From a virus: DNA of 64,000 nt. Both the position numbers and the translations under genes were made by a program. The DNA lies in IMG/VR virus record IMGVR_UViG_3300045988_107889, positions 1-64,000 of that record; one strand, written 5' to 3'. Positions within the stretch are counted from its first letter, which is position 1; each line of letters begins with the position of its first letter. Positions 39,053 to 58,068 of the stretch are shown one piece after another. Under the pieces are notes generated by a model. It had not been told where the DNA came from. It saw only the letters and a list, made by a program, of their open reading frames with translations, and ran no database searches.

Positions 39053-39332
39053 CTTCTACTCTCGTAGAAAGACTATATCATCTACCGCATAGCGGCAGCG
39101 GTGCGCTTGGAAGCCCGTATCAATAGGACTCCTACTGGGCTACACTCATCACCCATAGTCGTTGCACATTCCTTAAAGGCTTGCACAGGATTACCTTCCC
39201 GGCTTCCCCTGTTAGCTGAACAACTAGCAGTCATTTCCTACTGCTCCTGACGTTTGCTCAACACCCGCTGATAAACGGTTCACACCGAGCTTACACCTAC
39301 GTTACCGCAGGGAAGGACTTTGTTTAGGAGTA
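39053..39332 (-). mobile_element. group I intron (280 nt, ORF-less)
   Basis: 5' splice site follows U (GCAGAU|UACUCC). Intron nt 11-17 CAAAGUC pair with the 3' exon UUUG (P10) and the 5' exon GAU (P1, U-G). Ends ..GUAGAAG|UUUGAC. Contains GAUGAUAUAGUCU and GCAAGCCUUUAAGGAAUGUGCAACGACUAU blocks shared with the other intron. Confidence 0.75.
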
Positions 39333-40739
39333 ATCTGCTCCATTCAATCTTTGTGGGATTATTGATTTAGAATTGATGATGCACGTATTAACCAAATGAC
39401 TGAGGTACTTGCTTGTTAATTCATTATTGATAGCGTACAACACGACATTCTCACTATCACAAATGTGAGGGTTACGTGTAATCAACTTGCCGCCGTGCAT
39501 TGGCCCTTCTTTTGTTATACAGTAAAATTCATTGTCGCCGAGACAACCGTTAGGATCTAAACCAGCCGCCGCTTCCATGAATGCAATTAAGTCTGGTATC
39601 AGAAACTTGAAGCAGCTCTTGATCCATATCTTGCCGCAGCACATCTCGTCTATGTATTTAGTCAGCAGACTGATTAAGTAACTCCGCACTTCATATTGTT
39701 TAAGCATAGCGGGATTCTTTATTACGGACTTTGCATAGTCGTTTAAGGGACTGCACTTATCTGCCGTCAGCCCTAAGAAGCACATAGAGTAGAAGGGATC
39801 GCCGTCAATAATCTTTTGTGCCCACTCAATAGAGTCCGTAGCAAGCTCAACAAATTCTTGGTAGGGGAGGTTGAGCGTCTGAAGAACCTGGTAGTTGCAT
39901 CTCGTATAAACTGGCTCGATATCTTTATTGAAGTTCCATTTAGCAACGCCTAAGCAATAACCATACTTTTCGAATTGCTCCCAATAATATTCCCAGTCTG
40001 TTGCATCTTTGTTCGTCTGAAAATATTTGAAGCCCTTATACATACTCTTGCTCAAGATAATCATCGGCTCGGCGTCCGGGGTAACGTCATGCGACACGCC
40101 CCATATATCCTTGATAGATGTTACACCCCGCTCGGCGTAGAAGGTGGGGTAATCAACCTCGCAGGTAAGACCTTTGATATACGGCGCTCGCCAAAGTATC
40201 GTCGTCGGGCTATCAGCAGACGACAGCCGGAACTGAACCTCGTCCGTAATAGCCGGGTGGTGTATGCCACAACCGTCAAATGGAGTTACGTTGATATCTC
40301 TATATCCGTCCGCCACGCTCTTTTGCGTCCAGAGGATCTCTTTGCCATCAGCGTTGGTGAAAGATGTCTTTTCATCGTATATGTATTTGATATGCTGTTG
40401 CGGCAACACGCACTCGTAGTCCGGCACAACAATCACTTTAGGGCGGAAGCCATTCAAGCAATGGCAAGAAGAAAGGCATAGACCCCTATAAGCCATCAGC
40501 TTACTTATGACGGTCGGGCCGGGGCCAGCCCCCATAGTGATTGCCTCGTACACCGGATCTGATATAGCCGCGTCGATAAAGCTCAAGATAGAGTTGCGGG
40601 TCATGCTCGCCGATCGTTCGCACAGTACAAAGTGAGTGCCGTTTAACCAGAACCCATTCATAATTAGCTCCGTCATGACGTCTGTATCAGAGGAGCTACC
40701 CTTACAATCGACAAAACAAATACGCCGCGCACAGGTCAC
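39333..40739 (-). CDS. YonO/QDE-1-like RNA polymerase, exon 1 of 3 (5' end uncertain; frame open to 40892)
   Basis: Ends ...RLNGAD at 39333; the annotated ..YS* tail is intron read-through. The GTG at 40739 is the first canonical start. The frame continues 51 codons upstream to a CTG that lies 7 nt after GAGAGGTG. Confidence 0.7.
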
Positions 40740-44323: not shown

Positions 44324-44569
44324 CCTTAGGAATATGAACTGTTCGTCAGATCGGACACGAGCGTTCGCTCTAAAGACATCAATGCCTCGCTCCTTCTGCC
44401 TCTGAACTATTTTGATTTCTTCATCTTGGTGTAGAGGGCGGAAGCCATGCCCGCGTCTAAAAATACCGAAGGTGTTGTCTGGACCTCGCTCAATTGATTC
44501 GTAGCGTTTATCTATAGTGTGCTACCTCCTTATAAAAATTTTGTTGTCGCGGCCTTGCCGCCTGATTAT

Positions 44570-44598
44570 AATATACAAGTTTTTCTTTCAAACGTCAA
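44570..44598 (-). promoter_or_regulatory. consensus sigma-A-type early promoter (leftward)
   Basis: Minus strand reads TTGACG (44598-44593), 17 nt (tttgaaagaaaaacttg), then TATATT (44575-44570). Confidence 0.75.
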
Positions 44599-44665
44599 GG
44601 GGATAGAGTGGAACTCGTGCGAAATCCAACTCGAAATATTCTGATAAAAAATATACTGGGCGACT

Positions 44666-44911
44666 ATGAACAATTGTGAATAAATTATGAACATACATGA
44701 ACGAATTGTTAACAAATAGATTTTCGGACACACTCTGCTATCTTGTCCGCGATACGCTACGCCCCTTCCATATCCTTGAAATTCTGCGCTTCTTTAGATG
44801 CCTGTGGCCTGAAGCTCAATATTTAATTGTGAACAAACTATTAACAAAATACGTTCACTTTAACAGGTAGGCGTACTTTGGCAGAAAAATAGGCGTACTT
44901 AGACAGAAAGA
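44666..44911. promoter_or_regulatory. operator/iteron-like repeat cluster in the divergent control region
   Basis: ATGAAC x3 (44666, 44687, 44697). AATTGTKAAYAAA x3 (44672, 44704, 44825). 22-bp tandem repeat taggcgtactt.g.cagaaa.a x2 (44868-44889, 44890-44911; 19/22 identical). Confidence 0.55.
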
Positions 44912-45030
44912 GCGGATTGTGATTTTGTGTTGATATACCAACATTTTTTAGCTGTTGAGACACTTGTATTATATCTTATATCTATATATACATATATATA
45001 GTAATTCTCTCCGTCACACCTCTATCTCTT

Positions 45031-45809
45031 GTAAGGTAGTCCGTGGCGTGTCAGTAGATCAGCCGTCCTATCTCTTCGCCCCGGCCTGGAGAAGTAGGTA
45101 AGTCCGTAGAAGGGAAAAGGAAAGGTACGCCTGCGGCGTAGTCCGTAGAGAGAAAAGTGAGATGAGCTGTCTTGCTTGTGTGGGTAGTAGTTCTGTAACG
45201 CTGGTGGTGGGTAGGGCTGCGCCGGGATGAACGCGAGATGGTAGGGGGCGAAAGAATGTAGGTTAGCAGGTAGAAGGAAAAGTGATCCGTAGAGGGAAGA
45301 GTGGGTAAGGGCGTGGTGCATGGTGGATGTGGGGAGCGCTATGTTGTTCGCCAGAGGTGAGCTAGGTTTCGGAAGGTAGCAGACCGTCATATCTCCATCC
45401 TGTGTATGGCCGCTGCAGCGGCGGCTTGTTAGGTCGCTGCGCTCCCGAAGATTTTTTATTTTTAGCCCGTACAAGAAAAATGGAGTAGAAGAACTTTTCC
45501 TGTTGGTGGGGACGGCGTAACGGAATGATGGTCAGGCTTCCAGGCCATGACCTTCTCGCAGGAGAGGTTGGAGCTTTCTACAAAAGAAAGCGTGAGAGCG
45601 GCAGGAGTGGGAGATCAGCGAAGAGGGTTGGCAAGACGGAGCCGACGTGGATGGTTGAGGGGAAGAGCTGTTCTGCGATAGGAGGCGGGACTTGCAACGC
45701 TTCGCGTGAGGATTCATTTTTTTAGCCCGTAGAAAGAAATGGGATGAGAAGAGTGCTGGTTACGGAAGTAACTAGGGGTGGGAAGCCGCATAGCCACGGA
45801 CTACCTTAC
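45031..45809. repeat. 17-bp perfect inverted repeat pair A (45031-45047 / 45793-45809)
   Basis: gtaaggtagtccgtggc versus gccacggactaccttac, exact reverse complements. Flanks are unrelated. Confidence 0.9.
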
Positions 45810-45920
45810 GGTATTTCAATTTTTTAAAAGAAACAGCGCAGGATAGTTATTGGGTGAGAGGTAGAGCGTTTAGGGCCAAGTAGTGCTGGTGGATGGAACA
45901 CCACCTTTTCTCTCTACGGA
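45142..45920. repeat. 16-bp perfect inverted repeat pair B (45142-45157 / 45905-45920)
   Basis: tccgtagagagaaaag versus cttttctctctacgga. Both partners are offset by 111 to 112 nt from pair A, so the two pairs are interleaved rather than nested. Confidence 0.9.
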
Positions 45921-46140
45921 AAAAGAGCGGGAGCGATTCCGGGAGCGGAGCGACCTACAAGATGCCGCTGCAGCGGCCTTCCGTAAGAGGGAAACTAGAC
46001 GGTTGAACTTACCTATCATGTTTTCTTCCACACTACGCAGAGAAAATAGAACGGAACGGTCAGGGGTATATACCTACATACCCAACATATTATCTCTCTA
46101 ATTTTTCGTGGGACTACAGGAAGAAAATAGACCTCAGAAG

Positions 46141-47031
46141 TCAAATGGCGGCGGGGGTTGAATCAGCAGGTGCTTCGTACAGAGCAGCGAGCTGGTAGTC
46201 GTATCCGTTGCCACCCAGGTTCAGGTTGGTGTAGGCTTCGGTCATCTCTTCCTTGGTGAGGCCGATGTAGCAGAGGGTCTCGTTCATGGAGGAGTGGCCG
46301 AACATCTTCTGGAGGAGTACCAGCTTGCGAGGGTCGTTGCCGGACATCATCATCTGATGATAGCCGAACGTCTTGCGGAGGGAGTGAGAGGAGAACCGGA
46401 AGTCGAAGTTGCAGTGGTCGGCGATATCTTCTAGGATACGATTGACAGATCTTCTGTTGAGAGGACCAGGCTCGTAAGCACCACGGTTGTTGCTCTCAGA
46501 CCGGAACACTAGGTCAGACAGACTGACAGAGTAGGGTGCGTGCTCCAGGTAGAGTTCCACAGCGTCCATGACCGCGTCGTTGATGACAACGTAGCGGTTC
46601 TTTTTTCTTTTACGGGTGGAGGCAGTTTTCTTTTCCAGGATCTCAAAGGATTCTTTAAAGGAGAAGTCCTCGTTTAGGATGTGGGTGAACCGGAGACGCT
46701 GCAGGTCACTAATTCGGAGGCCGAAGTTGATGCCCATGACAAGTAGCATATGATCTCTGTAGCGGTGGTTGTCCAGAAGGTAGGAGCACGCTCTACGGAT
46801 GTCTTCAACACTCTTGATAGGGTCAGCCGCTCGGTCAGGTGCGGTGATGGCCTCTACCGGCTGGTCGCTCTGAGCGGTGATCCGGCTGGCAGCAGATTGC
46901 TTGAGTACCCGTGAACGGCTACTGTCGGCAGTCCGTGAGCGGCGGACAGAGTTGACGTCGATGGACGCGGGGTTGACAGTTTTGCTGGCGGGGTTGACAG
47001 CACTGTTGGGGAAAGAAATTAGGTTGCTCAT
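46141..47031 (-). CDS. short tyrosine recombinase (catalytic domain plus disordered N-terminus)
   Basis: GLRISDLQRLRF (box I Arg), HSLRKTFGY (HxxR), GHSSMNETLCYIG (His...Tyr). ATG at 47031 lies 8 nt after AGGAGG. Visibly GC-richer than the phage backbone. Confidence 0.85.
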   Translation of the reverse strand: MSNLISFPNSAVNPASKTVNPASIDVNSVRRSRTADSSRSRVLKQSAASRITAQSDQPVEAITAPDRAADPIKSVEDIRRACSYLLDNHRYRDHMLLVMGINFGLRISDLQRLRFTHILNEDFSFKESFEILEKKTASTRKRKKNRYVVINDAVMDAVELYLEHAPYSVSLSDLVFRSESNNRGAYEPGPLNRRSVNRILEDIADHCNFDFRFSSHSLRKTFGYHQMMMSGNDPRKLVLLQKMFGHSSMNETLCYIGLTKEEMTEAYTNLNLGGNGYDYQLAALYEAPADSTPAAI

Positions 47032-47081
47032 TGGCAAAACCTCCTTTTAAATTTGAAATGTTTTCTATTGATTATGTTACT

Positions 47082-47110
47082 ATTATAGCGAAAATGTTTT
47101 CAAATGTCAA
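47082..47110 (-). promoter_or_regulatory. consensus sigma-A-type promoter of the recombinase gene
   Basis: Minus strand reads TTGACA (47110-47105), 17 nt (tttgaaaacattttcgc), then TATAAT (47087-47082). Confidence 0.75.
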
Positions 47111-47526
47111 GATTTTTGGACGGCGAATTCCAAGAAATTTTCCAAAATTTATGAGCTACTGATTACGTCCCAAAATCAGAGACTGGAGAAACGAAGAGGA
47201 AACTTTAACCAAATAAAGTGAAATGAAAAGTTCTGATAATCAATATGTTGCGGATGGAAGTGGCGAGTTTTGGTGAGAAAAAGTTGTGAAATGGTGGAAC
47301 AACTAATTCCATATTACATTAAAAAACCGGCTTTAAAATATGGAAATTGCCCCCTCTACACCCCATAGGCGGGAAATGGGACGTTACTAATAAACGGTGT
47401 TAGGTACTATAATAGACTATAGTCTAGAACGGCTAATGGTCATTAGCTTGCCTGGCACAAATCAATAATAGGAATAAGTCTCAATAACACATTCTGACCG
47501 AAAAAATAAAAAATGCAAAAAAGGGG

Positions 47527-47556
47527 TTGACAAACCATGTCTATGTCTGGTATACT
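47527..47556 (+). promoter_or_regulatory. sigma-A-type promoter P1 of the non-coding RNA region
   Basis: TTGACA, 18 nt, TATACT. Confidence 0.7.
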
Positions 47557-47723
47557 CAAAGCACAGTCAAGGGACGGACGCCAAACCGGATGGACGGCGA
47601 AAAGTGACAGTCGCCGGTTATGTCCTAACCTGATTGTATGACGTAAACCAGGCCAGCCCGGCGGCCTTGCTCCATAGGAGCGGAAGCCAGGCAAAAAAAT
47701 CCCTGAAGAATCACAAAAACCGC

Positions 47724-47752
47724 TTGACAAAAACAAGCCGATGTGATAAGAT
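47724..47752 (+). promoter_or_regulatory. sigma-A-type promoter P2 of the non-coding RNA region
   Basis: TTGACA, 17 nt, TAAGAT. Confidence 0.6.
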
Positions 47753-48474
47753 AGGGACAGCTCGAACGGGGCAACCTGTTTTGAGTGGGGCAAAATGAGA
47801 CATTACAAAATCCAGGCAACCGGATAGCAATTTGACTTTTGCCAAAAAATCTACCACTTGACTAACCATTGAGTGGTACGTGCGGATAGCACGCTATACC
47901 GCACGGCGTACCTTGAAAACTCAATGCCAGACATTTCCTTTTCCGGCGTGGGGCGTTTTACCGTATTTATACGGTAAAACCAATGTAAGTTGGTAGCCCT
48001 CCTATGTGTAGTGTACTCCGTATTTATACGGATAATACTATCCATGGCACGATTAACCAGATTGGGAGATGGTAAAACGTGGCAAGTGCTAAAGGCGCAA
48101 GGGTGCAATAAGGCTGGAAACGGCTGGATATTATAGAGGTATCCTATCCTTTTACAGGATTTACCACTCTGTCGGACGTCCCCAGGGGATAACTATACCC
48201 TGGGGAAGAAAGAGGATAAACCGCTAAAACAATAGCGTGCTGGTTGGCACGCCGTGACCTGTTATGCGGGGGCGTTGTGGGATGTACCAGGGTGGCCAGA
48301 AGGGGAAAAAGACTAATAATCTGGAAACGTCAGAGAAAGATTATTAGCAAGTACCTGGAATAAAGTTAGCACAACACCGGATGGCGTGGCTTGTTATGAG
48401 TGCAGTGACGGTAACAAGCATAGGTCTATAGTTAAGACCTATCAGACGGTGATAAAACTCTTACTGGAAAAATC

Positions 48475-48541
48475 TAGGCCGGGTATGTTTTGTAGTTAGT
48501 AGCGAACGTGAACCCTAAAATTCATGCCCGGCCTATTTTTG
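48475..48541 (+). terminator. terminator-like long-range stem plus T-run closing the structured RNA
   Basis: taggccggg (48475-48483) pairs with cccggccta (48527-48535), followed by TTTTT. Confidence 0.55.
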
Positions 48542-48660
48542 AAAGAGGATTTGTTTTTTTTTATTATCAAATAAGAAGTCGTCAAAAGTGAATCAGACCG
48601 GCGGAACATCCACCTGTGTAATTTACCTTTGAAAATTACTACATAAAAAGGAGAATAACC

Positions 48661-49449
48661 ATGAATAACAATGAATTGTTGAAAAAGTACGAATCCACTA
48701 CCACCACCGACCTGAACAATCAGGTGAAGTCCGCTGTCGAGAAGGCAAACGCCTATGCTAAACAGCCCGAACTGAACCAGGTCGAGCTGTTGAAGCTCCG
48801 TGCCGATGCCGTTGCTCTGGCAGATGACTATAACCGTCTGGTAAAGCTCCGCCGTCTGGGCGAGCTGGCCGCCATGTCCTACGGGGACGCCATCAACGCC
48901 ATGACGGTAGAGGGCGGGGAAACTTGCCCCAAGATGGAAGTGATTCTCGATGGGGAGATCATGAACATCACCACGTCCAACGCCACCCGTATCCGCTGGA
49001 ACGAGTTGTTGAAGGCTGGCCAGTGTCCCGACGGTTACGAAAACCTGGAATCCCTGGTAAAGGTTTTCACCCACAACTGCCTCACCAACAAATTTGAAAA
49101 GGGTCAGTTGGTCGAGCTGCCCCCGCTGGACCCCGCTATCAAAGCGGTCGCTAATGGTCGTGACAACTGGGACTCTGGCTCTATGAATAAGTTGCAGTGC
49201 CAGATCCGGGATCTCATCGGCTGGATGTTCCCGGTGGACGAAGTAGGGGAATACTCTGCTCCTAGAAAGTCTGATGTACGGTGGTTTTCTGACATCGTTT
49301 GCCCTGCGAGTGACCGCGCTGGTGAACCTGCCCACTATGTCCAGCGCAAGGTATCTACTTTGTTGGACTCCCTGTTCAGAGTGTTCTATACCCTGAAAGA
49401 GGAGAAGGAAGTGGTCGTACGGCCTGCAAAAGCTAGCAAGAACCAGTAA
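48661..49449 (+). CDS. hypothetical protein (262 aa) downstream of the structured RNA
   Basis: Strong RBS aaaaaggagaataacc-ATG. GC-richer codon usage like the recombinase. No motif recognised. Confidence 0.7.
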   Translation: MNNNELLKKYESTTTTDLNNQVKSAVEKANAYAKQPELNQVELLKLRADAVALADDYNRLVKLRRLGELAAMSYGDAINAMTVEGGETCPKMEVILDGEIMNITTSNATRIRWNELLKAGQCPDGYENLESLVKVFTHNCLTNKFEKGQLVELPPLDPAIKAVANGRDNWDSGSMNKLQCQIRDLIGWMFPVDEVGEYSAPRKSDVRWFSDIVCPASDRAGEPAHYVQRKVSTLLDSLFRVFYTLKEEKEVVVRPAKASKNQ

Positions 49450-49559
49450 GTCGTTCCGGCGACTATAAACAGGCGTTAGGCCGGGAGCGTTCGCAGGTTA
49501 GGGCAAGCCCAACCTGCGAGGTCGCAGGAATAACATAGGTGGATTCTGTCTATGCCTGC

Positions 49560-49598
49560 AAAAAAAAAGCTACCCTAGCAGTAGCTTGCTAGGGTAGC
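49560..49598 (-). terminator. strong minus-strand intrinsic terminator with no minus-strand gene upstream of it
   Basis: 11-bp stem gctaccctagc/gctagggtagc (49569-49579/49588-49598), followed on the minus strand by T9 (plus A-run 49560-49568). Confidence 0.6.
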
Positions 49599-49616
49599 GG
49601 AAGGGTAGGACGCTGT

Positions 49617-50609
49617 ATGAGTAACCATACATATGTAGTCGGTGAATATACCGACTATGGTTATAAAGGTGGTGATGGTTTGTATAACGAAGATATTAAG
49701 CGGAATTTTTTGGATACGGAATGCAGTAGCTTGAAAAAGCAAAGAGATATTGCGAAAGTTTTTTCTTCTATCGCGTCGTTTGAGCAAGAGAATGGTCTAG
49801 ACATCGCTGAAATGGGCAAGAATTTGAGCGCGCAGGCTCTTGAACGTACTGGAATAAATGAGTATAGTGGAATTAGGAGTTATATTACTAGGTTAAGAGA
49901 GTATGCAAGATGGTGCGAAAAAAACAATATCTTCCCATCAATCCCCGGCGGGATTTTTGAAGTTTCTCCGGACGATGTGGATATTACAGATTCTCTAAAA
50001 GGGGTTTTGTTTAAAGACGAATTTGACTTGCTGGAGTCTATTAGATTAGTCCGTGACTTTGATTCTGGCTATCCAGAGGTTGCAGCCTTTTGTCTTTACT
50101 GGGTCGGTCTTACAAAAGACGAAGCAGTTTTGCTAAAAGACACTGACGTTGACTTGGAAAACAAGATCGTTTATGTTCATGACGGTATTGTTGCAGAAGA
50201 CTTTTCGGATGCCATTTGTGATGTATTAAACCGTTACCGTAATTGCAAATGGTCAACCCGGGCGAACGGAACTACACTCATGAGCGTTCGCAAGGATTTG
50301 TCTGTTGACACATTTCTTAAAAGGATGTTAACAGATGGTTCTAAAAAATTCGGTATGCCTGTAACAAAAACACAAATCACAGCACTATGTCAAGATGTGG
50401 TGACGGATTGTTCAGCACTTGGTCTCCCTAGTCGTCATACTTTTCAAAACGTCTGGCGGTGCGGTGGGTTCAATCGTATGTACAAGCTGGAACAATCCGG
50501 CGTGGATGTAATGAACCGCCCCACCATAGAAACGGTTTTTCGTGGAAAAAAGAATTACTACGATACACTAAGAATGTATCAATATTATAAAAAGGTCTTT
50601 GGTTTATAA
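49617..50609 (+). CDS. tyrosine-recombinase-fold-like protein with apparently degenerate active site
   Basis: AAFCLYWVGLTKDEAVLLKDTDVDLENKIVYV resembles integrase box I but has K instead of R. C-terminal HTFQNVWRCGGFNRMY sits in place of HxxR...Y. Tentative. Confidence 0.35.
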   Translation: MSNHTYVVGEYTDYGYKGGDGLYNEDIKRNFLDTECSSLKKQRDIAKVFSSIASFEQENGLDIAEMGKNLSAQALERTGINEYSGIRSYITRLREYARWCEKNNIFPSIPGGIFEVSPDDVDITDSLKGVLFKDEFDLLESIRLVRDFDSGYPEVAAFCLYWVGLTKDEAVLLKDTDVDLENKIVYVHDGIVAEDFSDAICDVLNRYRNCKWSTRANGTTLMSVRKDLSVDTFLKRMLTDGSKKFGMPVTKTQITALCQDVVTDCSALGLPSRHTFQNVWRCGGFNRMYKLEQSGVDVMNRPTIETVFRGKKNYYDTLRMYQYYKKVFGL

Positions 50610-53761: not shown

Positions 53762-54427
53762 ATGGCTAAGTATGAGTACGACAAAAGTTATCCCTTCGCT
53801 GTTTATATCACGAACCTCGGGAAGTACAACGAGGGCGAGCTTGTGGGCGAGTGGGTTCACCTCCCCACAACAGCCAAAGAAATGAAGGAGGTGTTCGAGC
53901 GTATTGGGATCGGCCAGAAGGATGACTTCGGATGCCCTTATGAGGAGTGGTTTATCACGGACTATGACTGTTATGTAACTGACCTTTGTCGGGGGTTCGG
54001 CGAATACGAAAATCTGGACGAGCTGAATTACCTGGCAGCAAGATTGGACGAGATGAGTGATCATGACTTTGAATTGTTCGAAGCGGTTATTGAGACAGGG
54101 GACTGCGGCGATTCTGTTAAAGATCTTATCAATCTCGTGGATAACCTGGATAGCTATATGGTCTTCTCTAATGTGACCAGCGACTACGACCTTGGATATT
54201 ACTACATCGAGGAAAGTGGTTGCTATGATACGGACAAGCTTGGCACGCTGGCCAGGTATATCGACTATGAAAGTTTTGGTCGAGACGTCCGGTTTGAAGA
54301 AGGAGGGTGTTTCACTTCCGCTGGATATGTTTTGCATGATGGTTCGAGCTTTACGGAATACTACGAGGGTGTCGAGGATATCCCCGATGAATATCGGGTA
54401 ATGACTTTCAAAGAGGAGGATGAATGA
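53762..54427 (+). CDS. ardA: ArdA-type antirestriction protein
   Basis: FAVYITNLGKYNEGELVGEWVHLP...EEWFITDYD...YENLDELNYLA is the characteristic ArdA N-terminal signature. The protein is highly acidic. Confidence 0.85.
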   Translation: MAKYEYDKSYPFAVYITNLGKYNEGELVGEWVHLPTTAKEMKEVFERIGIGQKDDFGCPYEEWFITDYDCYVTDLCRGFGEYENLDELNYLAARLDEMSDHDFELFEAVIETGDCGDSVKDLINLVDNLDSYMVFSNVTSDYDLGYYYIEESGCYDTDKLGTLARYIDYESFGRDVRFEEGGCFTSAGYVLHDGSSFTEYYEGVEDIPDEYRVMTFKEEDE

Positions 54428-55571: not shown

Positions 55572-55647
55572 ACCAGCATAGTTTTAAATGGGAAAACAAC
55601 GGTCTCCAAAACCGTAGTTCTAGGTTCGAGTCTTAGTGCTGGTGCCA
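55572..55647 (+). tRNA. trnW-CCA: tRNA-Trp (CCA)
   Basis: ACCAGCA/UGCUGGU acceptor (A1-U72, G73), anticodon arm ACGGU-CUCCAAA-ACCGU, T-loop UUCGAGU, CCA encoded. Confidence 0.85.
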
Positions 55648-55714
55648 CGTGCAAGTTTAATTGCACGGTGTGTAGTGTGAAAAAAGTCATATATTGCTCT
55701 ATGTATATAACCTC

Positions 55715-55863
55715 ACGGCGTAAAAGAGGTTGACTGTCTGACCGCAGTTATTCCAGTGCAATTCTGGTTGCCGTACACGCTGCTCAAAGCGGGTGAAGAG
55801 GTGTGGCACACTCCTTCCGTGCCTCACTTATGACTTCAAGGCGGTGCAATTCCGCCTAGCAGC
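55715..55863 (+). ncRNA. two adjacent tRNA-like / degenerate tRNA elements sharing a hairpin loop UGCAAUU
   Basis: Unit 1 (55715-55774): ACGGCG...CCAG-UGCAAUU-CUGG-UUGCCGU. Unit 2 (55779-55863): GCUGCU...GGCAC-ACUCCUUCC-GUGCC...GGCGG-UGCAAUU-CCGCC-UAGCAGC. Both lack a D-stem and CCA. Confidence 0.35.
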
Positions 55864-56053
55864 TCTCAATCGCTCTAGTTAACTGGTTCTGGGGCGAGGG
55901 TCAAAACCAGCAACCTAAACATTGATTGCAGACACCTGGTTAAGTACAGGCTAGGCAAGAAAGCTCTCAGGCACGGTTGGGCAACACAATCCAGCCCTAT
56001 CCTTTGGTTAGGCCGACTGATTGATAGGGCGGTTGTGGTTGCTGAACAAATAT

Positions 56054-56144
56054 CTCCCTGTAGCTAAATTGGTTATAGCTTCCAACTTATAATTGGAAGG
56101 CCCTCATAAGGTATATGGTGATTCGAATTCACCCAGGGAGACCA
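56054..56144 (+). tRNA. tRNA with anticodon UAU (Ile2-type reading AUA) but a class II-like 19-nt variable arm
   Basis: CUCCCUG/CAGGGAG acceptor, D-arm GCUA..UAGC, anticodon arm UCCAA-CUUAUAA-UUGGA, variable region AGGCCCUCAUAAGGUAUAU, T-arm GGUGA-UUCGAAU-UCACC, A-CCA. Confidence 0.65.
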
Positions 56145-56195
56145 CGATACCACGATAAAAATCTAATTCCATAAATAAGAAAGTGAGGAACTAAT

Positions 56196-56849
56196 ATGAA
56201 CAAAGAAACTATGACCGTCCATAAAGCTCTTGCGGAGCTGAAAATTTTGGACGCTAGAATTTTCAACGCCACTTCTGGCAAAACATTTGTCGCCGCGAAG
56301 AAGGTGAGCGACAAAAAGATCGGCGGTGTGTTGGTCGAAACCCTCAAGAAGGATATGAAGTCTGATTATCAGTCTGTTACGGACTTGATTGCTCGTCGGA
56401 CTGCCATTAAGAGAGCAGTTGTGCTCTCTAATGCCAAAGCTAAGGTAGTAATTGGTGGTGAGACCTATACTGTGGCAGAAGCTATTGAAATGAAGAACCA
56501 TGGCCTCATGGCAAAGAGAGACTTGCTGGATGTAATGGTTCGGCAGTATGAAAAGGCTCGTGCCGAGGTCGCCAAACACGAAGGCGAGTGGATTGAAGCG
56601 AAAGCCGAGCAATACATTATGAATTTCCTTCAGTCGCAGCCCAAAGAGGCCAAGACAACCAAGGATTCTGAGGTCGTTAAGCGGTTGAGAGAAGAGTATA
56701 TTGCCAACAATACGTATGAACTCATTGATCCGCTTGACATTGGTAATGAAATCAAGGTTTTGAGCGATTGGATTGACGCGTTTACTGCGGATGTAGATTC
56801 TCAGCTGTCTGTGTCCAATGCGACCACTACAATCACCGTAGAATACTAA
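56196..56849 (+). CDS. hypothetical protein embedded in the tRNA array
   Basis: 217-aa ORF with RBS gtgaggaactaat-ATG. Helical and Lys/Glu-rich. Confidence 0.7.
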   Translation: MNKETMTVHKALAELKILDARIFNATSGKTFVAAKKVSDKKIGGVLVETLKKDMKSDYQSVTDLIARRTAIKRAVVLSNAKAKVVIGGETYTVAEAIEMKNHGLMAKRDLLDVMVRQYEKARAEVAKHEGEWIEAKAEQYIMNFLQSQPKEAKTTKDSEVVKRLREEYIANNTYELIDPLDIGNEIKVLSDWIDAFTADVDSQLSVSNATTTITVEY

Positions 56850-56856
56850 AATAATC

Positions 56857-57199
56857 AACTTGCTGCAACCCGAAAACCTAAAACGGTAACCCATCGTGCT
56901 GACGGCACTTGGTTCGATGTAAAAATGAACAAATATGTGCCAACTACAAGGCAAACTTGAAATTTTGTGCTTGTAAAAAGATTGGGCGGTTAATCCAAAT
57001 CTCTTATAAAAAGAAGATATTTGCTGTAAAGCTCAAATTTCAAAGCTCGAATTTCAAAATTCAAGGCTCAAAGATCTTCAGAAGATTAAAGTTCAAGGGT
57101 CAACGTTCAATGGTTAAAGTTTTACAAAATCCTGGGTTAATGGTTTGGGTCAGTTATCAACGCCCACGGGTCAACCACCAGGCTGGGTTGTAGCAAGTT
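56857..57199 (+). ncRNA. ~343-nt element closed by a 15-bp helix, containing TTCAA/GCTCAA-type short repeats
   Basis: AACUUGCUGCAACCC (56857-56871) pairs with GGGUUGUAGCAAGUU (57185-57199). The single difference is a G-U wobble only on the plus-strand RNA. The interior has aagctcaaatttca/aagctcgaatttca and ttcaagg(c/g)tcaa repeats. Confidence 0.4.
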
Positions 57200-57205
57200 C
57201 AATAT

Positions 57206-57290
57206 GCGGGATTGGCGGAATTGGTAGACGCATCGTGTTTAAGTCTCGATGTCGAAAGACGTAGGAGTTCGAGTCTCCTATCCCGTACCA
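57206..57290 (+). tRNA. trnL-UAA: tRNA-Leu (UAA)
   Basis: GCGGGAU/AUCCCGU acceptor, anticodon loop UUUAAGU, long variable arm, T-loop UUCGAGU, A-CCA. Confidence 0.8.
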
Positions 57291-57439
57291 AAGAAAAGCC
57301 CATAGTTTGCGGACTATGACACCTGAAAAGTGGCGGTTTGCTTCTGGTAGACCGTAGTAGTGTGTTGACATCCTGGAAGAGACAGGAGTTCCCCTTTTTG
57401 ATCCCCCTTACATAGCTACCCCGCTTTGCGGGGTAGCGT

Positions 57440-57515
57440 GGCCGATTAGTTTAAATGGTAAAACGGCGGATTTGTACCCCGCAGATGTCGAGTTCGAGCC
57501 TCGCATTGGCCTCCA
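57440..57515 (+). tRNA. trnT-UGU: tRNA-Thr (UGU)
   Basis: GGCCGAU/AUUGGCC acceptor, anticodon loop UUUGUAC, T-loop UUCGAGC, U-CCA. Confidence 0.8.
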
Positions 57516-57516
57516 T

Positions 57517-57590
57517 GCTACTATAGTTTAATGGTTGAACGGTTGTTTCGTAAGCAACAGGTTCCAGTTCGATTCTGGGTAGTAGCTCCA
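57517..57590 (+). tRNA. trnT-CGU: tRNA-Thr (CGU)
   Basis: GCUACUA/UAGUAGC acceptor, anticodon arm GUUGU-UUCGUAA-GCAAC, T-loop UUCGAUU, U-CCA. Confidence 0.85.
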
Positions 57591-57593
57591 TAT

Positions 57594-57668
57594 CTGGGTG
57601 TAGCGCAATGGAAGCGCTCCTGATTTGGGATCAGGAGGTTGTCAGTTCGAGCCTGACCACTCAGACCA
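57594..57668 (+). tRNA. trnP-UGG: tRNA-Pro (UGG)
   Basis: C1-G72 acceptor CUGGGUG/CACUCAG, anticodon arm CCUGA-UUUGGGA-UCAGG, A-CCA. Confidence 0.85.
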
Positions 57669-57670
57669 AT

Positions 57671-57745
57671 GCAGGCGTAGTTCAACGGCTAGAACACCGG
57701 TCTTCCAAACCGGAAACGCGAGATCGGCACTCGTCGCCTGCTCCA
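57671..57745 (+). tRNA. trnG-UCC: tRNA-Gly (UCC), non-canonical T-loop AUCGGCA
   Basis: GCAGGCG/CGCCUGC acceptor, anticodon arm CCGGU-CUUCCAA-ACCGG, U-CCA. Confidence 0.8.
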
Positions 57746-57851
57746 TATCAAGCAACAGAAAACGATTCTCCTACCTGTTATTGTTGATAAATCACCTCCT
57801 TTCTTTACATAGCCTGGAATGGCGTTAAACTCTGCTCTGCTTGATTTATAT

Positions 57852-57925
57852 AGCGCCGTAGCATAACGGTAATGCAACGGACTTTGACTCCGTAAACGGT
57901 AGTTCGACACTATCCGGCGCTGCCA
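57852..57925 (+). tRNA. trnQ-UUG: tRNA-Gln (UUG)
   Basis: AGCGCCG/CGGCGCU acceptor, anticodon arm ACGGA-CUUUGAC-UCCGU, T-loop UUCGACA, G-CCA. Confidence 0.8.
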
Positions 57926-57983
57926 CGTTCGTTTTATACGGACACTTGCTTTCATTAACCGGCGGTACCACCGCCGGTAACAT

Positions 57984-58068
57984 GTGGGCGTGATGTAATT
58001 GGCAAACATGCGAGATTTAGGTTCTCGTGTCGAAAGATGTGCGGGTTCGAACCCCGTCGCCCACTCCA
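57984..58068 (+). tRNA. trnL-UAG: tRNA-Leu (UAG)
   Basis: GUGGGCG/CGCCCAC acceptor, anticodon arm CGAGA-UUUAGGU-UCUCG, long variable arm, U-CCA. Confidence 0.85.

Follow-up and report, generated by a model that had tools for sequence, protein, structure and literature searches.

A predicted large, structured non-coding RNA beside the integrase gene of an SPbeta-like gut phage

To our knowledge, very few non-coding RNAs of bacteria and phages are as big and complex as the one described here (rRNA, RNase P, group I and group II introns, OLE, ROOL, GOLLD, raiA and HEARO), and each of these large RNAs has either exposed new biochemistry or is still a puzzle. N proteins and their nut sites form phage-specific pairs, and the control genes of satellite phage P4 stand behind a constitutive promoter and a long, structured immunity leader with a terminator, the RNA sequence of which would set the specificity of immunity; the P4 CI RNA of about 80 nt base-pairs with repeated targets in the same leader. 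ROOL and GOLLD are described as large, many-helix phage RNAs that have their own promoter and terminator and often lie near tRNAs (PMC12286853). MrpR is the master repressor of SPbeta, and AimX, the RNA output of arbitrium in SPbeta-group phages, is regulated together with it (PMC10516654).

The window analysed here is a stretch of 64,000 nt from an SPbeta-like phage of about 107 kb. Between the start of its tyrosine integrase gene and a 262-aa gene lies a gap of 1623 nt (47038-48660) with no conserved ORF, in line with the 1.6-kb gap free of credible ORFs in which an earlier note on this DNA had placed a large RNA. The region from about 47760 to 48541 on the plus strand appears, from its sequence, to be the gene for a discrete, highly structured non-coding RNA, here called type A, whose transcript ends, abundance and timing (in the lysogen or early in lytic growth) we infer. 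We are highly confident that it is a real structured non-coding RNA of a new family. The integrase gene points away from it in divergent orientation (Table 1).

Table 1. Features of the type A locus and its neighbours (positions in the window)
Feature	Coordinates	Strand	Evidence or remark
Tyrosine integrase gene, 296 aa from ATG 47031	46141-47031	-	Pfam PF00589 E=1e-18; PHROG integrase E=1.5e-40
Promoter P1, TTGACA-18-TATACT, TG-extended	47527-47556	+	11/12 match
Hairpin downstream of P1, containing GGCGA/UCGCC (47594)	47563-47640	+	Alignments, consensus pair list
Promoter P2, TTGACA-17-TAAGAT, TG-extended	47724-47752	+	10/12 match
Variable 5' leader of the type A transcript	47760-47837	+	Alignments
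5' hairpins H2 (47852-47878), H3 (47879-47905, GUGCGG/CCGCAC) and H4 (47913-47924)	47838-47924	+	
Domain I, multi-branch, H5-H11	47925-48084	+	14 double-changed pairs in H5, H6, H8-H11
Domain II, H12-H22	48086-48372	+	Double changes in H12, H15, H16, H18, H22
Domain III, H23-H25 (48375-48451), and small hairpin H26	48375-48468	+	
Intrinsic terminator: GC-rich basal stem of 13 bp with its apical part conserved, followed by UAUUUUU	48475-48541	+	
Candidate promoter P3, TTGAAA-17-TATTAT	48539-48567	+	10/12 match
Shared linker AATCAGAnnGGCGG	48591-48606	+	Follows the terminator of RNA types A, B and C
262-aa orphan protein (p262 family)	48661-49449	+	No known family; very few relatives
Pistol self-cleaving ribozyme	49449-49526	+	Rfam RF02679, 66.9 bits (gathering score 34.5)
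MrpR-like protein, tyrosine-recombinase fold	49617-50609	+	MrpR N-terminal core-binding domain, Pfam PF22822 E=1.1e-9, 39.2 bits (cutoff 27)

Structure and extent of the type A RNA

Thirteen distinct type A homologues, 82-100% identical and all from gut metagenomes, delimit a conserved core at 47838-48545 (+). The conserved body is about 700 nt long, or about 780 nt counted from P2 and about 980 nt from P1; the large structured RNA proposed in the earlier note is thus borne out, but not its extent of about 1 kb from 47527, the conserved core starting at about 47838. The stretch 47557-48545 folded at -349 kcal/mol (z = -8.1; reverse complement, z = -5.9), and the dense structure noticed there exceeds chance on the plus strand. 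The consensus structure of the 13-sequence alignment comprises 206 pairs in 28 helices, with 99.2% of the cells paired. Covariation among homologues, which the earlier note had named as a check, is present: 27 pairs were changed on both sides, compared with 9.0±2.0 in shuffles (0/500) and 2-4 in slid controls, and an earlier set of 12 sequences, close homologues with a mean identity of 94%, gave 18 such pairs versus 5.4±1.6. The consensus energy was -230/-234 kcal/mol on the plus strand versus -168/-175 on the minus strand, and G-U pairs, which become A-C mismatches if read on the other strand, account for 12.8% of the paired cells, seven pairs being G-U in all 13 sequences. With a multi-helix structure of hundreds of nucleotides and compensatory changes, the type A RNA has the structural traits of a large ornate RNA.

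All nine interior hairpins listed in the earlier note exist. Covariation was seen in the GUGCGG hairpin, in both CCGUA hairpins and in the CCCCAGGG and CUAAUAAUCU hairpins; the GCUUGUUA and AUAGGUCU hairpins carried changes on one side only, and the GCGUGC hairpin showed no variation across variants. H2 and H3 contain two double-changed pairs each. Domain I, which holds both CCGUA-UUUA-UACGG hairpins, is the best-covarying part of the RNA and includes a GNRA-capped stem with a GUAA or GAAA loop in 12 of the 13 variants; its covariance model R1 gave scores of 191 bits for the window and 144 bits for the divergent homologue L105. Long-range helices H12/H13 of domain II enclose hairpins H14-H18, and in six variants a shorter hairpin replaces the variable hairpin H22 (48313-48347). 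The invariant centre of this domain (48221-48297) was paired differently in the predictions from the 12- and 13-sequence alignments, and domain III is nearly invariant, with one-sided (wobble) changes only. As neither of these two parts ever varies by compensation, the fold of the domain II centre and of all of domain III is a prediction only.

The two promoters reported as sigma-A-type at 47527 and 47724 are present, with sequences of sigma-70 type, and are conserved in relatives: the -35 boxes of both and the -10 box of P1 are invariant among the aligned type A variants and the type B and C relatives, and one or two inner positions of the P2 -10 box vary among relatives. P1 and P2 are two of the three best sites on either strand in 46500-50000, where 12 promoter-like sites were counted versus 4.5±2.0 expected; GGGGTTGAC is repeated three times locally, with one copy overlapping the P1 -35 box. 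Transcription from P2 would start at about 47759-47762, and the last block common to the RNA types ends at about 47770-47785, as judged from homology breakpoints. Since the hairpin at 47563-47640 is common to relatives of all RNA types, it is an element separate from the large RNA; the GGCGA/UCGCC hairpin, which had been counted as part of the RNA, therefore exists but belongs to this separate element, also found in relatives without type A RNA. A mosaic spacer (47641-47700) with two alternative versions follows the P1 hairpin. L016 and L019 lack the 5' leader and L105 has another sequence in its place, so that this leader is dispensable.

At the other end, the predicted terminator is present in all copies (H27 is kept in 13/13 sequences), its stem (48475-48535) and U-run folding at -28.1 kcal/mol with z = -4.0; it was missed by the scan tool because its loop is longer than 8 nt. 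As for the suggestion that the 262-aa gene has no convincing promoter of its own, a site with a 10/12 match (P3) does lie right after the terminator, but it is not conserved across variants, in which the spacing differs.

No conserved small-protein ORF explains the conservation, as had been envisaged as a refutation. Indels among the homologues measure 1, 1, 2, 1, 1, 1 and 17 nt and are not multiples of three. On the minus strand, 12 of the 13 variants keep an ORF of 58-85 aa (as two frames in L019), but as a coding sequence the 85-aa version was rejected, with variable columns distributed 33/33/33 by codon position and the frame broken in L019 and L105. A plus-strand ORF of 48 aa was likewise rejected, and a 116-aa ORF had no Pfam or PHROG match.

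Searches with Rfam 15 (4227 families, among them introns, RNase P, tmRNA, OLE, raiA and HEARO) at E<=10 gave nothing inside 47038-48475, and neither ROOL nor GOLLD was matched by cmscan at the gathering score or at E<=10 over 46900-49700. The large RNA of L105 likewise matched no Rfam family at E<=10. The matches that overlap 48476-48660 were to eukaryotic families at chance level, namely snoR9 with 14 bits (gathering score 90) and mir-368 with 18.6 bits (gathering score 58). At gathering and permissive thresholds, the window and its relatives contained only Pistol and tRNAs. The membership in ROOL or GOLLD that the earlier note had entertained is not supported, nor is one in raiA or OLE, and its other option, a new class, holds. 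An antisense regulator was also considered and rejected: the RNA has 22 complementary matches of at least 11 nt to other phage transcripts versus about 19 expected, the longest of which (15 nt) joins a non-conserved hairpin to the non-coding strand of a distant gene.

Distribution, neighbouring genes and exchange of the RNA

The type A RNA was absent from the public viral collections searched. Comparison of the gap with 50,697 phage records (BLAST, distant mode) gave no match, and in IMG/VR, scans for the double CCGUA hairpin, for the P1 anchor and for two invariant motifs revealed no new homologue, their outcomes being nothing, chance matches discarded by nhmmer, or three contigs already known. 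Of 33 matches in a scan of JGI/ENA metagenomes one was real (L092), and an 18-mer scan of GTDB genomes returned nine chance matches and no homologue, host or prophage copy. The SPbeta-like phage is seen as free contigs, and no integrated copy was seen in the single exact 18-mer scan by which bacterial genomes were covered. In the literature, no prior description was found among ROOL/GOLLD-like discoveries, catalogues of phage structured RNAs, and Pistol and integrase contexts, nor with sequence strings of the type A RNA. We read the type A RNA as a new RNA class limited to one clade of SPbeta-like gut phages of about 107 kb.

Related phages carry other RNAs in the same slot, which extends from P2 to the shared linker and is long and ORF-free in each of three types (A, B and C). 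Compared with L002, L003 and L004, the window loses homology just past P2 and regains it at the linker and at Pistol. The type B RNA shows 21 double-changed pairs versus 2-4 in slid controls, the structure support for type C is weaker, and the folding z-scores of the type B and C loci are -6.1, -4.4 and -3.4. K-mers and motifs common to the three types did not exceed chance, and the domain I covariance model found nothing in the B or C loci; judging from these comparisons, the slot RNAs of sister phages seem either unrelated to type A or unrecognisably diverged. A terminator closes the RNA of each type. Relatives have a second, inverted copy of the linker 340-570 nt further downstream, and the two copies flank a small gene cassette; the window represents the form without a cassette. 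Several variants carry a whole extra gene, in either orientation, between the large RNA and the p262 gene, and the alternative cassette proteins of L002 and L003 matched no Pfam or PADLOC family.

The protein after the RNA, p262, had no match in Pfam, PHROGs or PADLOC; an IMG/VR search gave no match, and exact look-up of the window's own protein gave no record. Divergent members of its family (19-27% identity) follow RNA types B and C, the type C protein being assigned to the family by hhalign (probability 97%, E=1e-10). In L014, a p262 homologue of 69% identity has a pentapeptide-repeat gene directly upstream and not a type A RNA. The first base of the Pistol ribozyme is also the final one of the p262 stop codon, and the ribozyme is kept in all relatives of any RNA type, including L002-L004 and L105. 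It is followed by the MrpR-like protein, probably the lysogeny master repressor of the window phage, for which no dispersed operator repeat was identified, the three copies of GGGGTTGAC being local only. Besides, the anti-restriction gene ardA lies in the same operon as the downstream genes, an array of nine tRNAs is located about 7 kb downstream of the large RNA, and the GC skew switches sign a few kb from the locus. A weak 'RdRP' flag on a neighbouring gene in L105 was not reproduced for its window counterpart.

The integrase is 91-97% identical in relatives with another RNA type (tblastn). Between the window and L002, identity is 97% for the integrase, 27% for p262 and about 42% for the MrpR-like protein, which is 80-100% identical among type A loci and about 42% in type B (A and B were compared). 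In each sampled locus the RNA and p262 types match, a co-occurrence that is partly built in, as the search that gathered most loci of types A and C started from the p262 protein. The linker and Pistol, as conserved islands, could let RNA and p262 types be reshuffled.

Proposed function and rival explanations

We surmise that host RNA polymerase would transcribe the RNA from P2 or P1 and stop at the terminator, releasing a stable folded RNA of about 0.8-1.0 kb that may serve as the cognate, type-specific partner of the co-inherited p262, the pair acting within a lysogeny or early-control module. The two might form a trans-acting RNA-protein complex. Alternatively, in a manner like lambda N/nut, the RNA would be a site on the nascent transcript and p262 would control read-through of the terminator into its own gene, the repressor gene and early genes, ArdA among them. 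Joint replacement of RNA, protein and repressor would then give the module another specificity, as happens in heteroimmune phages. We favour this RNA-p262 partnership in lysogeny or early control only tentatively. The co-occurrence of types would fit a leader as well as an RNA partner, and physical linkage would give the same pattern. For RNA binding by p262, neither a domain match nor a structural match was found (AlphaFold pLDDT of only 55-57), and the Foldseek result is meaningless because both models are of low confidence (pLDDT 54.7 and 56.6). RNA partners of known antiterminators are about ten times smaller than the type A RNA. More speculatively, the locus may be a new kind of swappable RNA-protein specificity module for lysogeny or superinfection immunity. 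In it, ornate RNAs of 0.5-0.8 kb, unrelated or diverged beyond recognition, would each pair with a cognate orphan protein and a cognate MrpR-like repressor, and the large RNA, besides a protein and its operator, would determine which phages are 'self'; we regard this as improbable.

A cis-acting explanation, in which the RNA works as an attenuator or long 5' untranslated leader of the operon mRNA and its terminator sets downstream transcription without a protein partner, is somewhat unlikely in our estimation. It could resemble the leader of satellite phage P4, where a processed RNA causes premature termination and immunity. The RNA does sit between the main rightward promoters, which it follows directly, and the operon that includes the repressor gene; each of the three RNA types finishes with a terminator and then the same linker, and P3 is not conserved, so that the downstream genes may depend on read-through; moreover, RNA type is swapped along with repressor type, as immunity determinants are. 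However, a conserved multi-domain structure of 460-830 nt far exceeds what known attenuators and riboswitches need, no alternative antiterminator pairing was noticed, and complementarity of the RNA to other phage transcripts is at chance level. The earlier note had already offered a leader of the 262-aa gene as an alternative: the constant co-occurrence of RNA and protein types agrees with it as with a partner, but the strong, conserved terminator and the extra gene cassettes that part RNA and p262 in either orientation in several variants weaken it. We consider it unlikely, too, that p262 is a mere neighbour of a protein-independent, trans-acting ornate RNA of ROOL/GOLLD type (by self-assembly, as a scaffold or as a host-defence decoy). 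The size and many helices of the type A RNA, its origin in a phage, a promoter and terminator of its own and the tRNA array about 7 kb off resemble what is described for these classes, and a variable accessory slot in an operon with ardA, swapped with unrelated RNAs, would suit an arms-race locus. Yet neither class is matched in sequence or structure, conserved self-complementary loops were not noticed on inspection, the extremely narrow distribution of type A differs from that of ROOL and GOLLD, and the strict concordance of RNA type and p262 type would be left without explanation.

A DNA-level element, in which the inverted repeats would serve as operators, recombinase sites (attP arms) or a replication origin beside the integrase, would be consistent with a divergent control region that adjoins this gene, with CCGTAT-TT-ATACGG occurring twice, 57 bp apart, and with GGGGTTGAC three times nearby and a change in GC skew sign a few kb away. 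It is nonetheless highly improbable, as the G-U pairs, seven of them universal, would be A-C mismatches in DNA, the consensus energy is strongly asymmetric between strands, the long-range helices H5, H12, H13 and H23 covary or persist over 75-290 nt, promoter and terminator bracket the region, and attP would more likely lie in the AT-rich 47038-47500. Hardly any weight falls on coding sequence that has decayed or gone unrecognised, or on the idea that a known RNA family (ROOL, GOLLD, group I/II intron) has a divergent member here: the minus-strand ORF does persist in most variants, and covariance models can miss very divergent members, but codon-position bias is absent, frames are broken, indels are non-triplet, the 116-aa ORF is without Pfam or PHROG relatives, and both the window and L105 stay without an Rfam match at E<=10.

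Comparison with known systems

The type A RNA adds a covariation-supported example to the large non-coding RNAs, absent from Rfam and from the literature searched. Its family is narrow, covering one uncultivated gut phage clade, so that any wider importance is conjectural. In contrast to ROOL and GOLLD, the type A RNA stands in a genetic context that can be read, at the head of a lysogeny-control or early operon, which makes its function amenable to genetic and binding tests, and which suggests large RNAs as exchangeable specificity modules in phage regulation.

Like the type A RNA, ROOL is associated with phages and prophages, has many helices and its own transcription unit, and measures about 600 nt; it often lies near tRNA genes, to which the array downstream in the window may be compared. 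ROOL differs in its broad distribution, the type A RNA being limited to a single phage clade, where it goes with an orphan protein of matching type and forms part of a lysogeny-control module. GOLLD is likewise phage-encoded and multi-domain, at about 800 nt, and its 5' part is variable and its 3' part more conserved, a trend also seen here, where domain I varies and domains II and III are nearly invariant. Unlike GOLLD, the type A RNA has no embedded or adjacent tRNA, and its neighbourhood consists of integrase, p262, Pistol and MrpR-like repressor.

The internal or external complementarity by which the P4 CI RNA works was not found in the type A locus. AimX resembles the role proposed here as an RNA in the lysis-lysogeny circuitry of SPbeta-like phages, but it is short and lies downstream of aimR-aimP, whereas the type A RNA is large and structured, bears no sequence relation to it, and has no AimR/AimP pair that was noticed beside it. 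Compared with the lambda nut site of about 60 nt, the fold described here is multi-domain and 700 nt long, and p262 has no similarity to N; the likeness to lambda N/nut is one of layout and not of sequence, and antitermination at this locus is hypothetical. The layout itself is the same, in that a promoter precedes an RNA element and a terminator and that a small protein which evolves fast is encoded just downstream, and in both cases RNA and protein are replaced together between related phages, beside a different repressor.

Structure and transcription signals of the type A RNA

The divergent gap of the window (47038-48660, 1623 nt) encodes a structured plus-strand RNA, designated type A (conserved core 47838-48545), and not a protein gene. 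All nine hairpins listed in the earlier note were recovered, and 47557-48545 folds at -349 kcal/mol (z = -8.1 with 20 shuffles; reverse complement, z = -5.9). RNAalifold predicted 279 pairs from 12 sequences, and the 13-sequence alignment of the conserved core yielded a 206-pair structure that is 99.2% paired. Covariation among homologues, whose absence the earlier note would have counted against an RNA, was evident from 27 pairs changed on both sides. Column shuffles gave 9.0±2.0 (none of 500 as many as 27), and sliding the partners in the 13-sequence core by 1-3 columns gave 2-4. The covariation is in part carried by two divergent copies, L019 and L105. The 12-sequence set gave 18 such pairs versus 5.4±1.6. 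Helices H2, H3, H5, H6, H8-H12, H15, H16, H18, and H22 all include covarying pairs. Hardly any variation occurs in the centre of domain II (48221-48297), in domain III, or in the terminator; their fold is therefore predicted only, and the predicted pairing of the domain II centre differs between the 12- and 13-sequence alignments.

Indels between the variants measure 1, 1, 2, 1, 1, 1, and 17 nt. In the most persistent ORF (minus strand, 47851-48108, 85 aa), variable columns are distributed 33/33/33 by codon position, and this ORF was rejected as a gene, being frame-shifted with stops in L019 and L105; a 48-aa plus-strand ORF was likewise discarded, as it is broken in both copies. Covariation and coding results thus disposed of the two testable objections foreseen in the earlier note, a lack of covariation and a conserved small protein.

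The promoters and the terminator were found as previously proposed. P1 (TTGACA-18-TATACT, 47527-47556) matches the consensus at 11/12 and P2 (TTGACA-17-TAAGAT, 47724-47752) at 10/12 positions, each with a TG extension, and they are two of the three best promoter-like matches in 46500-50000, where 12 such sites occur versus 4.5±2.0 expected. The terminator has a 13-bp GC-rich stem topped by a long apical part, and then UAUUUUU (-28.1 kcal/mol, z = -4.0). With an inferred P2 start near 47760, these signals predict transcripts of ~780 nt from P2 and ~980 nt from P1. A promoter-like site past the terminator (48539-48567, 10/12 match) is not conserved, so transcription of the downstream genes may not be independent.

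The hairpin following P1 has an expanded stem in the related locus L004, and for the 60-90 nt segment after it type A phages have two versions, unrelated to each other; this region (47563-47700) could be a separate small RNA or a regulatory element upstream of P2. The sequence GGGGTTGAC occurs three times on the plus strand (46969, 46990, 47523) versus 0.26 expected by chance. Two copies fall in the 5'-terminal part of the integrase gene, and the third shares bases with the -35 box of P1. The sequence is a candidate for controlling P1 and the integrase promoter, as an operator or arm-type site, that promoter likely being the perfect minus-strand match listed in the table.

Features of the window and, where a contig is named, of related phages
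Feature	Position	Strand	Remark
Tyrosine integrase gene	46141-47031	-	last gene of minus-strand block
Sigma-70 promoter	47082-47110	-	perfect 12/12 (TTGACA-17-TATAAT), upstream of integrase start at 47031
Conserved hairpin, ~75 nt	47563-47640	+	downstream of P1; common to all relatives; mosaic spacer next
Dispensable leader	47760-47837	+	deleted or replaced in L016, L019, L105
Hairpins H2-H4	47852-47924	+	
Domain I	47925-48084	+	both CCGUA-UUUA-UACGG hairpins and GNRA-capped stem
Domain II	48086-48372	+	closed by long-range helices H12, H13
Domain III	48375-48451	+	
Terminator	48475-48541	+	stem and U-run; -28.1 kcal/mol
Pistol self-cleaving ribozyme	49449-49526	+	66.9 bits; sole strong Rfam neighbour of gap
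MrpR-like gene	49617-50609	+	MrpR N-terminal domain PF22822; second tyrosine-recombinase-fold gene
ArdA anti-restriction gene	53762-54427	+	Pfam E=3e-40; in the rightward operon
Nine-tRNA array (Trp, Ile, Leu x2, Thr x2, Pro, Gly, Gln)	55572-58068	+	~7 kb downstream of RNA
Candidate type B RNA	L002:2490-3262, L004:2455-3228	-	~745 nt
Candidate type C RNA	L003:2760-3250, L106:30-560	-	~460 nt

Homologues and alternative RNAs in the same slot

BLAST of the gap against 50,697 phage records returned no match, and the type A RNA body is absent from IMG/VR, where loci found via the integrase (L002-L004) are homologous from 47000 to ~47780 only and again at the Pistol ribozyme. The 262-aa protein p262, encoded downstream (48661-49449, plus strand), has just two homologous clusters among 5.8 billion proteins. 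In Logan and ENA assemblies, contigs that code for a protein of its 45-member cluster contain the RNA region in full (82-100% identity). L105, a phage whose integrase is only 76% identical, has an RNA copy of ~83% identity. The resulting 13 distinct sequences are close relatives (mean identity 94% among the 12 variants of the first alignment), sampled largely via p262. A metagenome motif scan gave one further copy, on a 107-kb contig (L092); the scan of one genome per bacterial or archaeal species found none.

Membership of ROOL or GOLLD, contemplated in the earlier note, was not borne out: no Rfam 15 family reached its gathering score in the gap, and a permissive search (E<=10) gave nothing within 47038-48475. 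A full-text literature search found no paper with this RNA. An IMG/VR-based catalogue of phage RNAs required at least three IMG/VR regions per motif and could not have captured types A-C, because IMG/VR holds none of type A, two contigs of type B, and one of type C. The type A RNA belongs to the large ornate phage ncRNAs in kind but fails membership of every defined family; it is very probably a real structured ncRNA of a new family, and a coding sequence or a missed known family is extremely improbable.

The sister loci L002 and L004 (type B) and L003 (type C) have P1 and P2 in common with the window and encode integrases of 91-97% identity to its own, but their sequence between P2 and a common linker, AATCAGAnnGGCGG (48591-48606), is wholly different. 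These regions are again long and ORF-free, end in a terminator, and fold well, with z of -6.1, -3.4, and -4.4. The two type B copies, ~83% identical by BLAST, show 21 double-changed pairs versus 2-4 in slid controls, and their consensus favours the plus strand (-216 vs -182 kcal/mol). A 29-nt direct repeat lies on both sides of type C. Its relative in L106, a more distant phage, is 67% identical, and folding these two sequences together gave 17 double changes, weak evidence for a conserved structure. Common k-mers of the three types do not exceed chance, neither nhmmer nor a domain I covariance model detected type A in type B or C loci, and types B and C have no Rfam match. The slot therefore holds at least two, and probably three, different RNAs that are large, structured, and mutually dissimilar as far as detectable.

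In relatives (L012, 5621-5960; L032, 3155-3455; L002, L003, L004), the linker has an inverted copy 340-570 nt downstream. The paired copies flank a small gene, of 87 aa in L012, and the linker-flanked cassette of L032 has the opposite orientation; the window site (48591-48640) is 'empty', with both half-sites 8 nt apart. Such a unit may be a mini-cassette that can invert or insert, with one of the two proteins of tyrosine-recombinase fold acting on it.

Phage setting and genes travelling with the RNA

The window comes from a large tailed phage. Its long minus-strand block consists mostly of structural genes, including a 2489-aa tape-measure-like protein and a terminase, and ends with the integrase, and the plus-strand block begins at 48661. 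The terminase shares 43% identity with YonF of Bacillus phage SPbeta and best matches a human faecal phage contig; related contigs (104-109 kb) come from gut metagenomes. The operon of p262 and the MrpR-like gene runs on through small orphan genes, the ArdA gene, and the tRNA array, and ArdA is consistent with an early or counter-defence region. The cumulative GC skew has its minimum at ~44400-45000, ~2.5 kb left of the gene-orientation switch, leaving the minus-strand genes of 45022-47037 with 'wrong' skew; this could reflect a replication origin or DNA acquired recently. A neighbour gene in L105 (10803-10876) carries a weak precomputed Pfam 'RdRP' flag (PF05183), recalling the YonO-type RNA polymerase of SPbeta, and its presumed window counterpart (39324-40739, minus strand, 471 aa) has no such Pfam match.

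The Pistol ribozyme starts at the last base of the p262 stop codon, and the MrpR-like gene lies 90 nt downstream of it. Every relative keeps the ribozyme as an island of conservation irrespective of which cassette type flanks it, and it could split the mRNA of the repressor from the transcript ahead of it. In SPbeta, lysogeny is under the master repressor MrpR, which has a tyrosine-recombinase fold without catalytic activity and binds an operator that occurs repeatedly (PMC10516654); the MrpR-like protein probably has the same role in this phage. Type A loci share 80-100% identity in this protein, against ~42% for type B loci, a pattern suggestive of heteroimmune alleles. The window and L002 have integrases of 97% identity but MrpR-like proteins of only ~42%.

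Homologues of p262 with 27% identity are encoded in L002 (283 aa) and L004 (270 aa). The 365-aa protein of type C joins this family by profile comparison (probability 97%, E = 1e-10), a profile search recovering its 62-member cluster. The family is otherwise orphan, with 2 matches among 1.84 billion representatives; p262 has no Pfam, PHROG, or PADLOC match, and its AlphaFold model (confidence 55-57) has no structural neighbour.

Possible roles of the RNA

In all sampled loci the RNA type equals the p262 type, despite the conserved linker and Pistol islands between the parts. The type A RNA is a new structured non-coding RNA gene flanked by promoters and a terminator that are conserved. It is one of several RNAs that alternate in a cassette slot within the lysogeny or early-control region, and its cognate orphan protein is swapped along with it as a unit; between types A and B the repressor allele changes too. 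We tentatively favour a partnership in which the RNA would be the type-specific partner of p262. A protein-independent RNA resembling ROOL or GOLLD, possibly a counter-defence decoy, would agree with the ornate architecture and the neighbouring ArdA gene, but is rather unlikely given this joint exchange. A DNA-level element is very improbable, as the G-U pairs (12.8% of paired cells), the strand asymmetry (consensus energy -230/-234 kcal/mol on the plus strand vs -168/-175 for the reverse complement), and the long-range helices count against it. An antisense role found no support.

A purely cis-acting leader or attenuator, possibly P4-like, is a less probable alternative to the partnership; the earlier note had likewise considered a long leader of the 262-aa gene. 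What is unusual here is the context, in which replaceable RNA alleles are linked to a cognate orphan protein and a repressor. Under the partnership with p262, the block would set the specificity of lysogeny control or immunity. The RNA would then work in trans as a complex with protein or, much like lambda N/nut, within the nascent transcript, where it would control read-through of the terminator.
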